Origin: Escherichia phage K30
Sequence record: NC_015719.1
Length of the DNA stretch: 40,940 nt
Strand: one strand, 5' to 3'
How positions within the stretch are numbered: the stretch's first letter is position 1; every line of letters begins with the position of its first letter. The position numbers and the translations under genes are program-made. Under the pieces are notes generated by a model. That model searched no databases, was not told where the DNA came from, and saw only the letters and a list, made by a program, of their open reading frames with translations. Shown one piece after another: positions 10,444 through 39,969 of this stretch.

Positions 10444-10899
10444 ATGGCTAAGGTTCAATTCACTAAGCGACAGGAGACCTCTCAGATTTTCGTTCACTGC
10501 TCAGCTACCAAGGCGACCATGAATATTGGCGTCCGTGAGATTCGCCAGTGGCACAAGGAGCAGGGCTGGCTGGACGTAGGGTATCACTTCATCATCCGCC
10601 GTGACGGTACCGTTGAGGTAGGTCGAGACCAAGATGCTGTAGGTTCACACGTCAAAGGCTACAACTCGACTTCGGTCGGCGTGTGTTTGGTGGGAGGTAT
10701 CGACGCCAAGGGCAACCCTGAGGCAAACTTCACTCCAGCCCAGATGCAGGCACTGCGTTCACTGTTGGTAGAACTGAAGGTGCAATACGATGGGGCTGTT
10801 CTGATGGCACACCACGATGTAGCACCTAAAGCCTGCCCGAGCTTCGACCTGAAGCGCTGGTGGGAGAAGAATGAACTGGTCACTTCAGACCGTGGGTAA
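10444..10899 (+). CDS. 3.5: Lysozyme / N-acetylmuramoyl-L-alanine amidase, RNAP inhibitor (T7 gene 3.5)
   Basis: 151 aa; recalled near-identity blocks with T7 lysozyme (IFVHCSATK, VREIRQWHKEQGWLDVGYHFII, AHH.VAPKACPSFDLKRWWEKNELVTSDRG). Confidence 0.95.
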   Translation: MAKVQFTKRQETSQIFVHCSATKATMNIGVREIRQWHKEQGWLDVGYHFIIRRDGTVEVGRDQDAVGSHVKGYNSTSVGVCLVGGIDAKGNPEANFTPAQMQALRSLLVELKVQYDGAVLMAHHDVAPKACPSFDLKRWWEKNELVTSDRG

Positions 10900-32879: not shown

Positions 32880-32919
32880 CCGATTGGTTTCCCTCCTCAT
32901 TCAACTAAAGGAGGTCACA

Positions 32920-35631
32920 ATGGACCAAGACATTAAAACAGTCATTCAGTACCCAGTAGGGGCCACTGAGTTCGACATCCCGTTCGACTACCTGTCCCGC
33001 AAGTTTGTCCGTGTGTCGCTGGTGACAGGCGACAACCGAAGACTGCTGAGTAACATCACTGAGTACCGCTACGTGTCTAAGACCAGAGTGAAGCTCCTTG
33101 TGGAGACCGCTGGGTTCGACCGTGTGGAAATCCGTAGGTTCACCTCGGCATCTGAGCGAATCGTTGACTTCAGTGATGGCTCGGTTCTCCGTGCGGCTGA
33201 CCTTAACGTGTCTCAGATACAGTCGGCACATATCGCAGAGGAAGCACGTGATGCGGCACTTATGGCAATGCCTCAGGATGATGTCGGTAACCTTGATGCA
33301 CGTAACCGTAGAATCGTGCGGCTGGCACCGGGCATTGATAGTACAGATGCAATCAATAAGAACCAACTGGACACCACCTTAGGTGAGGCTGGTGGTATTC
33401 TGTCACAAGTCAAGGATACCCAGAAGGACATTCAGAACTACATTCAGAAGTTCGGCGATGACACCGCTATGGTTCGTGGAGTAAATTGGGTGTATAACGG
33501 TGGGTCTGCCATTGGTGGAGAGACCTCCTTTATCATCGACAAGTCAGCGCCAGTGTTCGCCGTACCATACATTGAGGTAAACGGAAGCCGTCAGTTCCGA
33601 GACTGGCAGTACGAGTATGACCCTGCAACCAAGCGTGTCACTCTGGTTAAACCTCTGGAGGCTGGAGACTTTGTTGTATGCCTCACTACCGAGAATAAGT
33701 TACCTTTAGAAGACCTGCTGGCTAGTACAGGAGGTGCCGATTCCATTGGTAAGGCTGGAGGTGGTACAGTTCAGGATGGTCTGGATGCAACGATACATGG
33801 TACTGATGTCCACCGAGACACTGTGACTCCCGGTAAACTGGACACACTCCTTGTGTACAATGGGACCAACGCTGGGCGCGACCTACGTGGCCATGAGTTC
33901 GTAATGCCCCACGGCACATTCTCCGCGACTCGCATCTTGAGAACTCGTGGTATCTCAGCGGCTGAATCTAAGTACACTGGGTTCACTTGGCGCGGACAGG
34001 GTAGTTCGTTCACCAAGTTGGTCCACCCTGCGACTGGTGGTCAGGGTGATATTGCATTCATGGACTACCTGAAGGATGTTACGATGTCTGGGTTCATGAT
34101 GGACAACACCGCGCTAGGTCAGGGGACTTCCAATCAGGATACCCGTAACGGTCAGTTCTGGATTCGACATTCGGTTGACTCCTACTTCGACGACCTGCGC
34201 TTCGCTGGTGCTGACGCCCTTACGTTCTGTCTGGACCACTGTAAGAACATCTACTCGACAAACCTCAAGGTAGACTATCAGCTGCGCTATCCGACTGGTA
34301 CAGGTAAGTCCCCGCTAATAGTTGGTGACTACTCGGAGCAGTGCATGTTCATCGGCGGCTACGTTAAGACCGTGTCACCTGACGGAACCATAAAGTATGC
34401 TGGTGACCTCGCAGATAACGACCAAGCGGATGATACCAAATGGGCGTTCATTAACCTGTACGGATTGACGTTTGAACAGAAGCCTAACTCTAACGCCTGT
34501 ATGTGGCAAGAAGGGGAGGGTGCACCATCCAACGCTCACTTCATCGGTATGAACTACATCAACAACGGTGTAGGTCATGGTGTGTCTGAGAAAGCTGTGG
34601 GTACTGACATCGGGTCTACCTTCCGTCAGGCTCAGGTTCGTGCTGTGTGGAACCGTGCTGAGTACATCTCAATCGGCAGTCACTTCATTAACAACGATGC
34701 CAAGTATCCTGCTGGCACTGGTGGCGCAGGTACTGCGGCTGCTGGTGGTGTTCATAATGACAACGCCAAGTTCACCTCTCTGGTTGGTGACTACTTCCGT
34801 GGTAACTTCGCGGATTATACAGACTACACAGGGGCATCTGGTGTTAACCCGGAGAACTCAACCCACATCACCAACGCAAAGTTGACATCCATCATTCGTA
34901 CATCGTCCTCCAGTACCTCTCAGCATTTAGCCATTGTGAACTGCCAGTTAACTTCTGCGGGTCGTATTAGCGGCGGCGGTAACGGGAGACTCCACGTGTC
35001 CGTTGTGGCATCTCACTGCGTCGGGCCTCTGGGGCAGTTTGGTCACGGACAGTCCGAGACGTACCTTGACGTCATAAACTCTACGTTCACTGCCGCTGGT
35101 AGCACTGAGGCTATGATTACCCAGTCAGGTGTTGGTAATATCTCGTTCGCTAACTCCACGTTCCGTGATTATATCCGTGTGGTAGATGGCTCGCATACCC
35201 GTGTTACCTTCCGTAACTGTACGTTCTACACTTGTACTTTCACTGAGGACGACCGAAAAGCTCGCTACGTTAACTGCCGATTTATCTCGTGCACTGACGC
35301 TCCAGACTCCTTCGGCCTCAACTTTGCGGCAGACTCTCTGGACCGCCCTAGCTCACTTCGAGTTAACGTAACGTTAACTGCTGGCGGCAGCTATACGTTC
35401 CCGGCTTGGGTACTTCAGGGTCGTGGTGCTTACTTCATCAACGTGGGTGGTAATGGTGCCAACCTTCCTGCCTGCGCTGGTATCATTGGTAAGAGTAGCG
35501 CGACTGGTAGTGGTGTATGGACCCCTCAGTGGGAAAGCACTCCTAGTAGTATTGTTGTATCTTGGCCATCCAACGGATACATTACTGTTACGGCCACAAC
35601 TGCTGGCAACTACACAATCGGCGTCCACTAA
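32920..35631 (+). CDS. 17: Tail fibre / tailspike with T7 gp17-like N-terminal anchor and beta-helix (depolymerase-like) C-terminal region
   Basis: N-terminal 150 aa resemble T7 gp17 ([48 protein letters not shown]); C-terminus has repetitive N.TF / NCTFYTCTF segments typical of parallel beta-helix enzymes; start at ATG 32920 with AAGGAGGT RBS. Confidence 0.9.
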
Positions 35632-35644
35632 TAAGGAGAACCAC

Positions 35645-37198
35645 ATGTTAGACAAATTGAATCAGCCGAAAGGCTCAACCATTGGTGTGCTCAAGGATGG
35701 GCGCACCACCCAAGAGGCCATTGACGAACTCACTAATGATGTAACAGGAAGTATCACAACTACCCGGTATGCATCGAGTGCTTCCCAGGCGCTGTTCCCG
35801 AAGCTCATTGACAAGATGACTGCGTATCGGCATGGTGTCTCTGGATTCCAAGACAAGTTTCGAATCTACGGGTATGGCTCCTCTGTAGGCAATGGGGCAA
35901 CGATTGGTGGAAACTCCTCGCCAAATACCCCAGTAGCAAAATTCTTTGAGCACTTCCAGAGGACGGTCAACAAGGCTGGAATCTACCCATTCGAATACTC
36001 GAACAAGTCGGTGGATGGTTCCAACATCAACGATTTCCTCAACCGGGAGTGGCCTGCGACTGTCGCCACTGGTGTCTTCCCGGACCTAGCGGTTTTCGCT
36101 TACGGTATGAATGACTTCCCCTCGGCGCAGTATAATGCTGGGATGACCTTCGGGGCCAACGGTTTCAAACAGAGACTTCGCAATGCAATACAGAAGGTTC
36201 GAGACGCTGGCGGAGATGTAGTTCTCCTGACCACCCCACACCCAAACATTGAGGAATACTCGTGGGAACTCCCGTCAAGTATAGACATGGTGTGGCCCCA
36301 GTTTGCTGCCAAACCCGTGGCTGGTGACGTTCTTATTCCACCAGTGTCACAATCAAATGTGTCCTTCGACTTCATGGGCAAACGCATCACTCAGGGTGTT
36401 CGCTTCCTGAGAGGTAACGATGCGATGCGTGAGGTTGCTGTGGAGATGGGTTGCGTCTTGATTGACGTTGAGAAATACTGGTTCGAGGCCGTTGGTAAGT
36501 ATGGGAACGTACTACTGTTCGACCGCGTGCCAGCAATGCAGACAGTGCACCCTAACCTACTGGGTCACCAGCAGTCGTACTGGCGGGCAATCGAAGAGTT
36601 CTTCAACAATGTGGATTCCTCTGGATGGATTGCTCCAGACGCTAAGTTGAACCAGACGCTGGATGTTGGCGGTAACGCCCTGAACCCCGCGAAGATGGAA
36701 GCTGATGTCGACCTTCAGGCCAACGGCATCCGTCAGCGTGCATTCGTGCGCCGGGATAAGTCTGGCCGTGTCATGGAGGAGCTGACGCAGGACAGCAGGG
36801 TCAAGCGCACATCCTACACGGTGTCAGACCCTACAGTATCAGCTCCGGGATATAGCCTAACATGGGACGAGTGGTTTACCCGCACCAAGGGATTATTCAC
36901 CAGTGGGGAGACTTTGGGCATCCCTGTAAATAACCGCACCGAAGGTCGACTATTAGTCACAGCGTGGATTTCAGGCCAGACTGGCTGGACCCAGCTTGAG
37001 GACTACTTAGTCTCTAACCGTGAGGGTGTTGTATTGGTCTCCAAGATTGGCTCTTTAGATAATACTCCACCGGCTGGTGGTACAGGGACCAACGGTCAGC
37101 GCCTGTTCACCGTGTCCACCTCTGCGAACAATGTCGTGGTTAATATCCTATCGGATAACGCCACTGTGAAGTTCAAACTGGACACCTTTGGGGCATAA
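35645..37198 (+). CDS. Second receptor-binding protein candidate with SGNH/GDSL-hydrolase-like motifs (putative esterase tailspike)
   Basis: 517 aa from ATG 35645 with TAAGGAGAA RBS; motifs YGYGSS, YGMNDF, VHPNLLGH in the order expected for an SGNH fold; sits between gene 17 and the holin. Confidence 0.6.
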   Translation: MLDKLNQPKGSTIGVLKDGRTTQEAIDELTNDVTGSITTTRYASSASQALFPKLIDKMTAYRHGVSGFQDKFRIYGYGSSVGNGATIGGNSSPNTPVAKFFEHFQRTVNKAGIYPFEYSNKSVDGSNINDFLNREWPATVATGVFPDLAVFAYGMNDFPSAQYNAGMTFGANGFKQRLRNAIQKVRDAGGDVVLLTTPHPNIEEYSWELPSSIDMVWPQFAAKPVAGDVLIPPVSQSNVSFDFMGKRITQGVRFLRGNDAMREVAVEMGCVLIDVEKYWFEAVGKYGNVLLFDRVPAMQTVHPNLLGHQQSYWRAIEEFFNNVDSSGWIAPDAKLNQTLDVGGNALNPAKMEADVDLQANGIRQRAFVRRDKSGRVMEELTQDSRVKRTSYTVSDPTVSAPGYSLTWDEWFTRTKGLFTSGETLGIPVNNRTEGRLLVTAWISGQTGWTQLEDYLVSNREGVVLVSKIGSLDNTPPAGGTGTNGQRLFTVSTSANNVVVNILSDNATVKFKLDTFGA

Positions 37199-37207
37199 GG
37201 AGGTACC

Positions 37208-37411
37208 ATGTTGTCCCTAGACTTCAACAACGAAGTTATCAAGGCGGCTCCCATTGCGGGGGTCGCTGGGGCTGACGGTGTAGCGAGGCTCTTCTGGGGC
37301 CTCTCACTCAACGAGTGGTTCTACGTCGCGGCAATCGCCTACACAGTGGTTCAGATTGGTGCCAAGGTAGTCGACAAAATCATTGACTGGAAGAAAGCAA
37401 ATAAGGAGTAA
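37208..37411 (+). CDS. 17.5: Class II holin (T7 gene 17.5)
   Basis: 67 aa; recalled near-identity to T7 gp17.5 (MLSLDFNNE.IKAAPI, LSLNEWFYVAAIAYTVVQIGAKVVDK.IDWKKANKE). Confidence 0.9.
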   Translation: MLSLDFNNEVIKAAPIAGVAGADGVARLFWGLSLNEWFYVAAIAYTVVQIGAKVVDKIIDWKKANKE

Positions 37412-37414
37412 CAT

Positions 37415-37672
37415 ATGGACCTGATTAAGTTCCTCGAAATGTTAGACACTGAGATGGCTCAGCAGATGCTCATGGACCTGAAGAATCCAGAGAAGCGGAC
37501 CCCTCAGTTGTACAACGCCATTGGTAAACTACTGGAGCGTCACAAGTTCCAAATCTCTAAGCTAACCCCTGACGTTAACATCTTGGGTGGACTGGCTGAG
37601 GGTCTGGAGGCTTACAACTCCAAGGTGGGTGCTGATGGTCTTACAGACGACGATACGTTCACCCTACAGTGA
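37415..37672 (+). CDS. 18: Terminase small subunit (T7 gene 18)
   Basis: 85 aa; recalled similarity to T7 gp18 (FLEMLDT.MAQ.ML.DL, PQLYNAI.KLL.RHKFQI.KL.PDV.ILGGLA, GLTDDD..TLQ). Confidence 0.9.
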   Translation: MDLIKFLEMLDTEMAQQMLMDLKNPEKRTPQLYNAIGKLLERHKFQISKLTPDVNILGGLAEGLEAYNSKVGADGLTDDDTFTLQ

Positions 37673-37675
37673 TAT

Positions 37676-37709
37676 ACTCAAGGTACTACTATATGTAGTG
37701 CCTTTATGA
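37676..37709 (+). promoter_or_regulatory. RNase III-type processing hairpin (R18.5-like)
   Basis: actcaaggtactac-tatat-gtagtgcctttatga; about 10-bp stem. Confidence 0.6.
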
Positions 37710-37768
37710 ATGTCATTGCACTACGCTAGGCGTTCCTACGTGAAATCTGAGAAACAACGGGAGGCATT

Positions 37769-38215
37769 ATGCTGGGGTTCACAAAGAGAATCGTCCCGTA
37801 TCTTGTGGCTATCATGGTGTTTGCCTTCGGGTGGCACTTGGGTTCGCAATCTACGGACGCTAAATGGAAGGAGGTAGTACAGAATGAGTACGTTTCGAAG
37901 CAAACAGCTAGAGTTCAAACTCAAGCAGCACTTGATGAGATATCGGCTAAGTACCAAGCAGACCTTGAGGGGCTGGAGGGCAGCACTGATAGGATTATTG
38001 CTGATTTGCGTAGCGACAATAAGCGGCTGCGCGTTAGAGTCAAACCTACCAGTGTCGCCGCAGGACCAGACGGTCGATGCCTCGTTGATGGTTCCGTCGA
38101 ACTACACGAAGCAACTGCTCGAAGTCTTATCGCAATAACCCAGAAGGCCGACCTCAAAGAGAAGGCCCTACAGGACACTATTCGTAAGCTACAGCGGAAA
38201 GGAGGTGAACATTGA
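37769..38215 (+). CDS. 18.5: Rz-like i-spanin (T7 gene 18.5)
   Basis: 148 aa; N-terminal TM segment; recalled similarity to T7 gp18.5 ([43 protein letters not shown]). Confidence 0.9.
37884..38138 (+). CDS. 18.7: Rz1-like o-spanin lipoprotein, embedded in gene 18.5 (T7 gene 18.7)
   Basis: 84 aa in the +1 frame inside 18.5; lipobox ...[11 protein letters not shown]; recalled similarity to T7 gp18.7. Confidence 0.8.
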   Translation: MSTFRSKQLEFKLKQHLMRYRLSTKQTLRGWRAALIGLLLICVATISGCALESNLPVSPQDQTVDASLMVPSNYTKQLLEVLSQ

Positions 38216-39969
38216 GTAACTCTCAGCAAGCCAAGAACGCCTTAATCATTGCACAACTGAAGGGTGACTTTGTCGCCTTTCTCTTCGTGCTCTGGAAGGC
38301 CCTGAATCTGCCGGAACCAACCAAGTGTCAAATCGACATGGCTAAATGTCTGGCAGACCCAAAGAACAAGAAGTTTATCCTTCAGGCTTTCCGTGGTATC
38401 GGGAAGTCGTTCATCACGTGTGCGTTCGTTGTGTGGACCCTGTGGCGTGACCCTCAGTTAAAGATACTGATTGTCTCAGCCTCAAAGGAACGTGCGGACG
38501 CTAACTCCATCTTCATTAAGAACATCATCGACTTGTTGCCTTTCCTGAGTGAGCTTAAACCTCGCCCCGGTCAGCGTGACTCCGTGATTAGTTTTGATGT
38601 AGGCCCTGCCAAGCCAGACCACAGCCCGTCAGTTAAGTCTGTAGGTATTACGGGTCAGCTTACTGGTAGCCGTGCCGATATCATCATTGCAGATGACGTG
38701 GAGATTCCCGGTAACTCTGCAACTCAAGGTTCTCGTGAGAAACTCTGGACGTTGGTTCAGGAGTTCGCCGCGCTGTTGAAACCTCTACCGACTAGCCGTG
38801 TTATCTATCTGGGTACCCCTCAGACCGAGATGACGCTCTACAAGGAACTTGAGGACAACCGTGGTTACTCTACAATTATCTGGCCAGCACAGTATCCTCG
38901 CTCCAAAGAGGAAGACCTGTACTATGGCGACCGACTGGCTCCTATGCTCCGTAGCGAGTACGATGAGGACAAAGAGGGTCTCGCCAGTCAGCCAACAGAC
39001 CCGGTGCGGTTCGACTCTATGGACCTTCAGGAGCGTGAGGTGGAGTACGGCAAGGCTGGCTATACGCTTCAGTTCATGCTCAACCCAAACCTCAGTGACG
39101 CCGAGAAGTACCCTCTACGCCTCCGTGACGCTATCGTGTGCAGTCTACAGGTAGACAAGGCCCCAATGCACTACCAGTGGTTACCTAACCGTCAGAACCG
39201 CAATGAGGAGCTTCCTAACGTGGGTATGAAGGGTGACGAGATTTACTCCTTCCATACGGCCTCAAGTAACACTGGTGCGTATCAAGGTAAGATTCTGGTC
39301 ATTGACCCAAGCGGTCGTGGTAAGGATGAGACTGGCTGGTGCGTATTGTATACCCTCAACGGTTACATCTACTTGATGGACGCTGGTGGTACTCGTGGTT
39401 ACGAGGAGAAGTCCCTTGAGTTCCTCGCCAAGAAGGCCAAACAGTGGCAGGTTCAGACTGTGGTCTTCGAGAGTAACTTCGGTGACGGTATGTTCGGTAA
39501 TGTGTTCCAGCCTGTTCTCCTGAAGCATCACCCAGCGCAACTCGAAGAGATTCGTGCTCGTGGTATGAAAGAGGTCCGCATCTGCGATACCCTTGAGCCT
39601 GTACTGGCAAGTCACCGCTTGGTCATCCGTGATGAGGTAATCCGACAGGACTACCAGACGGCACGTGATGCAGACGGTAAGCACGCTCTGAAGTACAGCC
39701 TGTTCTACCAGATGACCCGTATGAGCCGTGAGAAGGGAGCTGTGGCACATGATGACCGACTTGATGCATTAGCATTGGGTGTTGAGTTCCTACGCTCTAC
39801 GATGCAGCAGGACGCTGTGAAGATAGAGGCTGAGGTACTTCAGGAGTTCTTGGAGCACCACATGGAGAAACCTCTGAGTAATATCTCACAGTTCAGAACC
39901 ACCAGCAGTAACGGTGTGGACATCCGGTGGGAAGACGATGGGGATGACTCTATGTTCATCGCATGGTAA
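38212..39969 (+). CDS. 19: Terminase large subunit (T7 gene 19)
   Basis: 585 aa; recalled extensive identity to T7 gp19 ([70 protein letters not shown]); TTG start with AAAGGAGGTGA RBS. Confidence 0.97.

Follow-up and report, generated by a model that had tools for sequence, protein, structure and literature searches.

Escherichia phage K30 (NC_015719.1), which we analysed as a single window of 40,940 bases, carries a pair of spanin genes, one of them nested inside the other. The pair and the neighbouring genes are:

37769..38215, + strand: i-spanin gene (Rz, T7 gp18.5 homologue), 148 aa; assigned by PF03245, PHROG 1327 and hydropathy
37884..38138, + strand: o-spanin gene (Rz1-type, T7 gp18.7 homologue), 84 codons and a stop; assigned by the ORF list, PF17531 and conservation
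37208..37411, + strand: class II holin (T7 gp17.5 homologue); PF10746 E=6.5e-33, PHROG 920
37415..37672: small terminase gene, from Pfam/PHROG neighbours
38212..39969: large terminase gene, from Pfam/PHROG neighbours
10444..10899, + strand: amidase endolysin (T7 gp3.5 homologue); PF01510 Amidase_2, E=9.7e-17

The o-spanin ORF begins 115 nt past the start of Rz (37769), at 0.26 of the i-spanin gene length, and because 115 mod 3 = 1 its frame is +1 relative to Rz. According to the ORF list it is nested wholly within the Rz ORF in a different frame, which is the organization of an embedded two-component spanin. The original prediction of an 84-aa ATG ORF at 37884-38138, in the +1 frame and fully inside the Rz gene, is therefore borne out.

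The host gene encodes a protein with the layout of a type II inner-membrane protein, with a hydrophobic N-terminal transmembrane segment by hydropathy (aa 8-26, 37790-37846) and a helical periplasmic domain. It matches the Rz lysis protein family PF03245 as well as PHROG 1327, and two coiled-coil segments, at 60-87 and 117-144, have been predicted for it (PMC6139136 Table S3). A PDB sequence search with Rz gave nothing meaningful (best E 0.08) and no related solved structure.

Both a holin and an endolysin accompany the pair. The gap from the end of the holin to the start of Rz is 358 nt, and the amidase has a T7-like placing. A scan of 37000-38400 for sigma-70 promoters and terminators gave no + strand sites, with counts near the shuffled expectation.

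Some further features of the neighbourhood are worth recording. The spacer between the small terminase and Rz (37673-37768) contains a 10-bp stem-loop (AAGGUACUAC/GUAGUGCCUU; hairpin 37680-37704), at the place of the R18.5 RNase III site in the annotation of T7-like records. With a fold z-score of -1.85, the suggestion that it is a possible counterpart of T7 R18.5 is suggestive at best. On the other side, the large-terminase ORF begins at TTG 38212 and overlaps the Rz stop TGA (38213-38215). Its Shine-Dalgarno (SD) sequence, AAGGAGGTGA (38199-38208), sits in the final codons of Rz, K-G-G-E-H, a five-residue C-terminal extension that is absent from T7 Rz. The KP32 RefSeq terminase start is 123 nt further downstream, which is probably too late. 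Two consecutive tail receptor-binding genes also lie in the window, at 32884-35631 and 35645-37198. The first product (915 aa) has the T7 tail-fibre N-terminal domain, and the second (517 aa) has a GDSL/SGNH hydrolase-like domain (PF13472, E=2.7e-10), which might give it esterase or deacetylase activity towards capsule or LPS.

Lipoprotein signal and family assignment

The o-spanin product consists of a signal peptide and a short mature protein:

37884..38027, + strand: coding region of the o-spanin signal peptide, aa 1-48; hydropathy and pattern analysis
38028..38135, + strand: mature o-spanin lipoprotein, 36 aa; matches the periplasmic K30 sequence in PMC6139136 Table S1

The signal peptide is made up of a basic N-region (aa 1-32, 37884-37979), an uncharged hydrophobic core (aa 33-45, 37980-38018) and the lipobox residues I-S-G before Cys49, whose codon is 38028-38030. 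With 9 K/R and 1 E, the net charge of the N-region is +8. The ISGC lipobox fits the consensus [LVI][ASTVI][GAS]C (quoted in PMC6139136), and the pattern is that of a lipoprotein signal, though in the 84-aa form Cys49 is beyond the 15-35 range of the PROSITE-type rule. The signal peptide and lipobox that had been predicted for the 84-aa ORF are therefore present. The mature protein has Ala at +2, 3 Pro, a net charge of -3 and no further Cys. Asp at +2 is not found here or in the relatives, which have A, V, T, S or G at this position, as is expected of a lipoprotein sorted to the outer membrane.

How much of this could follow from the coding of Rz itself? As a chance control, synonymous codons were redrawn in 20,000 trials from the codon usage of the window, with the Rz protein sequence left unchanged. 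The +1 frame remained open across the 84 codons in 287/20000 recodings, and a lipobox motif occurred somewhere in the +1 frame in 1058/20000. A 13-residue core of equal hydrophobicity had P=0.006, therefore the core is not expected from Rz coding alone.

The basic N-region behaves differently from the core in this control. The simulated mean is 8.5 K/R against the 9 observed, and since synonymous recoding of Rz yields equal K/R content, we reject the basic N-terminal extension as a selected feature. The Rz helix is rich in Glu, Lys and Gln, and overprinting it in the +1 frame brings the basic residues along as a matter of composition.

When all six frames of the window (40,940 bases) were searched for a lipobox after an uncharged hydrophobic stretch, four matches came up. 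Only the o-spanin combines a basic N-region with a mature part of useful length, and the scan found no other convincing lipoprotein signal in the K30 window.

The family models agree with this assignment. With Pfam PF17531 (O_Spanin_T7) the 84-aa product scores 94 bits (E=5.5e-27), well above the curated threshold of 25 bits for a T7-type o-spanin. The match spans residues 25-84 and all of the model (positions 1-59 of 59). The o-spanin also matches PHROG 4306, 'Rz-like spanin'. None of the NCBIfam models matches either spanin, with the o-spanin tried in its 84-aa and 67-aa forms.

Conservation and dual coding

Relatives were gathered via the Rz protein and not via Rz1, in order to avoid circularity. 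The resulting set holds about 76 distinct Rz genes, ranging from 100% down to 47% Rz protein identity. Each of them retains the open +1 ORF, a lipobox (ISGC, TSGC or TAAC) and a mature o-spanin of 35-44 residues. The lack of such conservation had been named as what would refute the original prediction; the frame and the lipobox are instead found throughout. A tblastn search with the o-spanin matched 1,130 phage records, and in the annotated records the match sits under an Rz-like gene. The INPHARED copy used here does not contain K30 itself. Across the spanin locus its best match reaches 97.7%; across the first 25 kb the closest entry, that of Klebsiella phage VLCpiA3d, is 94.8% identical. IMG/VR does contain the window itself, as contig UViG_651703039 (40,940 bp).

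The third codon positions of Rz are the second positions of Rz1, and we compared variation at these wobble sites among the 46 close relatives that align without gaps. Outside the overlap 31/62 sites are polymorphic, whereas inside it the count falls to 14/85 (Fisher p=2e-5). The depletion is stronger across Rz1 residues 25-84 (6/61, p=1.2e-6 against the sites outside), and over the mature o-spanin Rz wobble variation is nearly abolished (4/36 sites). Among the variants in the overlap, 25 are nonsynonymous in Rz and synonymous in Rz1, versus 14 of the reverse kind. The depletion of Rz wobble variation over Rz1 indicates dual coding, with the second frame under purifying selection; together with the variant counts it is the sign of purifying selection on both frames.

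These results decide against the idea that the ORF is a chance open frame inside Rz with no functional protein. Stop-free +1 runs of at least 84 codons do arise somewhere in Rz in about 15% of the synonymous recodings, and the ORF is left unannotated in most database records. However, a chance frame is hard to reconcile with the Pfam match, with strong wobble depletion lying exactly across Rz1 aa 25-84, or with an ORF, lipobox, ATG and SD that are kept in every relative down to the lowest Rz identity. The homologous T7 pair is, in addition, cited as an embedded spanin that has been tested by experiment (PMC6139136). Because of the family match, the wobble depletion and the conservation in relatives, we regard a chance origin as effectively refuted, with a negligible probability.

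The ORF at 37884..38138 is conserved, dual-coding and SD-driven, it belongs to the O_Spanin_T7 family and it carries a lipoprotein signal. It is highly probable that this is the K30 o-spanin gene, the orthologue of T7 18.7, overprinted in the +1 frame of Rz/18.5.

Start codon of the o-spanin

The position of the o-spanin start is a separate question from its identity. The mature 36-aa lipoprotein is identical for the 84-aa form and for the shorter starts. The sites that bear on the choice are:

37868..37875, + strand: Shine-Dalgarno AAGGAGGT for the o-spanin, within Rz codons K-E-V; from the sequence
37875..37877, + strand: TAG closing the Rz1 frame upstream of the ATG; from the sequence
37935..37937, + strand: alternative start Met18, giving a 67-aa form with Cys at 32; published K30 entry
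37965..37967, + strand: alternative start TTG (Leu28), giving a 57-aa form with Cys at 22; raised for K11 by SpaninDB curators

The TAG lies just 5' of the ATG, so 37884 is the first possible o-spanin start in K30. The SD AAGGAGGT is perfect and ends 8 nt 5' of this ATG. Every relative has an ATG 49-54 codons 5' of the lipid-modified Cys, and in every relative that ATG has an SD (GGAGG, AGGAGGT or AAGGAGG(T)) with a spacing of 5-9 nt and a 5-8-nt match. In our reading translation starts at 37884 because the conserved K-W-K-E-V-V-x-N-E codons of Rz can accommodate an SD and an ATG there.

An alternative is that the o-spanin is real but that translation begins downstream, at Met18 (37935) or at the TTG (37965), with a signal peptide of normal length and with the upstream ATG incidental to Rz. 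These starts place the Cys at 32 or 22, satisfying the 15-35 rule that Cys49 violates, and the TTG would yield a canonical 21-aa signal peptide. For K11, the SpaninDB curators have suggested the TTG as a possible start (PMC6139136). Furthermore, Rz1 residues 1-24 have no detectable wobble constraint (8/24 versus 31/62 in non-overlapping Rz, p=0.23) and they differ in wobble variation from residues 25-84 (p=0.019), the only residues that the PF17531 model covers.

The comparative evidence points the other way. Across the relatives, neither downstream candidate is preceded by a convincing SD: there is no SD upstream of Met18, and the best that the TTG offers is a 4-nt AGGA, seen in three relatives of the T7 group. 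The Met18 codon is ATG in only about 9/53 distinct Klebsiella-phage relatives, the others having ACG (Thr). The TTG occurs in the Klebsiella and T7 groups (it is ATG in L120), but is missing from several deep lineages (absent in L058, L132, L135, L136, L138 and L139). Synonymous recoding of Rz retains the upstream ATG at about 20% per lineage and GGAGG at about 51%. An incidental ATG would be kept at that low rate, whereas the actual one is found in every lineage, each time with an SD. In addition, the stretch from this ATG to the core of the signal peptide is never interrupted by a stop in the relatives. A downstream start therefore seems unlikely to us. From the sequence comparison, translation most likely starts at ATG 37884 rather than at Met18, which would give an unusually long 48-residue signal peptide. 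Given that start, the first ~30 o-spanin residues would be a largely unconstrained leader.

Might such a leader have a role of its own? T7-family o-spanin precursors could carry an exceptionally long +8 leader that slows or gates Sec/Lol export and so times the accumulation of spanin, or, in K30 and T7 (which have Met18), two start isoforms could be made. We consider this quite improbable. It is weakened because the basic charge is expected from Rz composition and because residues 1-24 show no detectable constraint.

A start further upstream has also been annotated. The KP32 RefSeq record over-extends the o-spanin gene to 163 aa, from a start inside gene 40, and if K30 followed KP32 gp41, this 163-aa 'Rz1-like protein', the true product would be longer and begin in the gene 18/18.5 spacer. 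In keeping with this, positions 80-163 of PHROG 31145 (163 aa) match o-spanin residues 1-84 (E=3.5e-48), and about 40% of relatives have AAG in place of TAG 37875-37877, which leaves their Rz1 frame open upstream. It is this AAG that leads to the over-extended 163-aa annotations (KP32 gp41, phrog_31145), and the KP32 over-extension in turn accounts for the match of K30 to PHROG 31145. In K30, however, the TAG shuts the frame 6 nt 5' of the ATG. Upstream stops lie at several differing positions among the relatives, which means that coding is not conserved in the extension, and no family matches the 55-aa piece upstream. A longer product has next to no chance of being correct. For the same reasons (the in-frame TAG, the variable stops and the lack of a family match), the upstream 55-aa ORF (37710..37877) was rejected as part of the o-spanin gene.

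Relation to known spanins and meaning for annotation

The original prediction likened the pair to the T7 18.5/18.7 spanin arrangement, and the comparison holds, both in the PF17531 and PF03245 matches and in the details. In the annotated T7 record 18.7 lies within 18.5 at the same 115-nt offset and in the +1 frame. T7 gp18.7 has 83 aa against 84 in K30, the Cys is at position 49 in both, and one 10-residue string is identical. Identity between the two phages is 58% for the o-spanin and likewise 58% for the i-spanin, and the gene order (holin, small terminase, spanins, large terminase) is common to both. The two o-spanins have diverged in the basic N-region and in the central mature domain, and the spacing of the o-spanin SD is 8 nt in K30 versus 5 nt in T7. 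K30 Rz also differs from T7 Rz in the five extra residues that harbour the terminase gene SD.

The Klebsiella phages K11 and KP32 (Przondovirus) are closer, with 84-aa o-spanins that are 85-90% identical to that of K30 and share its SD and ATG. The annotation of K11 gives the o-spanin at its full length of 84 aa. Compared with most Klebsiella-phage relatives, the K30 o-spanin has Met18 in place of Thr and, at +3 from the Cys, Leu in place of Ser. K11, K30 and KP32 have been assigned to the T7 i-spanin family and the K11 o-spanin family (PMC6139136).

With lambda Rz1/Rz the K30 pair shares the embedded +1 architecture, in which an outer-membrane lipoprotein is paired with a type II inner-membrane protein. 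Both mature o-spanins are short and contain Pro, and both i-spanins are in Pfam PF03245. The lambda Rz1 and K30 o-spanins, however, have no detectable sequence homology and are in different Pfam families. Lambda Rz1 has a periplasmic Cys that forms an intermolecular disulfide, which the K30 o-spanin lacks. The periplasmic Cys of Rz is a single one, Cys104, and the mature o-spanin has zero, therefore a lambda-style covalent o-spanin dimer cannot form in K30. Judging from the sequences, an intermolecular disulfide would be possible only via Rz Cys104, in an i-spanin homodimer, as in T7. The published table gives the same counts for K30, 1 (i-spanin) and 0 (o-spanin) (PMC6139136 Table S1), and its authors propose that spanins near-universally have periplasmic cysteine(s) permitting intermolecular disulfides (Kongari et al., PMC6139136). 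In the same survey most embedded o-spanin genes begin at 0.4-0.5 of the i-spanin gene length, compared with 0.26 for K30.

By analogy with lambda and T7, the o-spanin precursor would be exported by Sec, Cys49 would be diacylglycerylated, the signal cut by signal peptidase II and the Cys N-acylated. Ala at +2 would then permit Lol delivery of the 36-residue lipoprotein to the inner leaflet of the outer membrane. Its C-terminal part would be expected to bind the C-terminal periplasmic end of Rz, whose N-terminal helix (residues 8-26) presumably serves as an inner-membrane anchor, and the complex would span the periplasm through the murein meshwork. If K30 lysis follows these models, the holin (37208..37411) would permeabilise the membrane and the amidase (10444..10899) would degrade the murein and free the spanin complexes. 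These would then cluster and collapse, fusing the inner and outer membranes and completing lysis.

The K30 o-spanin is real, correctly interpreted, and already known both as a family and for the K30 genome. It had been described in advance as a known architecture, and in fact Kongari et al. 2018 (PMC6139136, Table S1/S4) list the o-spanin of K30 itself (NC_015719) at 37935..38138, with 67 aa, as embedded in the +1 frame. The same source gives the i-spanin at 37768-38215, with a protein identical to the Rz of our window. The published o-spanin and the 84-aa ORF share their frame, the stop at 38138, the lipobox and the mature 36-aa sequence. They differ in the start, which in the published entry (Met18) is 51 nt downstream of ATG 37884. 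That entry is flagged 'not annotated' in RefSeq / 'o-spanin not identified', and its start is noted as doubtful (PMC6139136). What we add is limited to comparative evidence that favours the 84-aa start (ATG 37884, SD AAGGAGGT) over the published 67-aa call.

It had also been anticipated that such a gene is easily missed by automated annotation, and the records agree. The K30 o-spanin is listed as unannotated, and in the published survey 196/528 o-spanins are entirely missing from annotation, with a further 64 having wrong starts (PMC6139136). From the tblastn matches we drew an evenly spread sample of 60 phage records, of which 56 are annotated; a second feature is found under the o-spanin match in 8/56. 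An Rz1-like protein is named in 1 of the 30 closest records.

The relevance of these results is mainly for annotation quality, and no new biology is implied. In most related Klebsiella-phage records just a single spanin gene of the pair is annotated. Work on phage therapy makes use of Klebsiella przondoviruses, therefore complete lysis cassettes are worthwhile.
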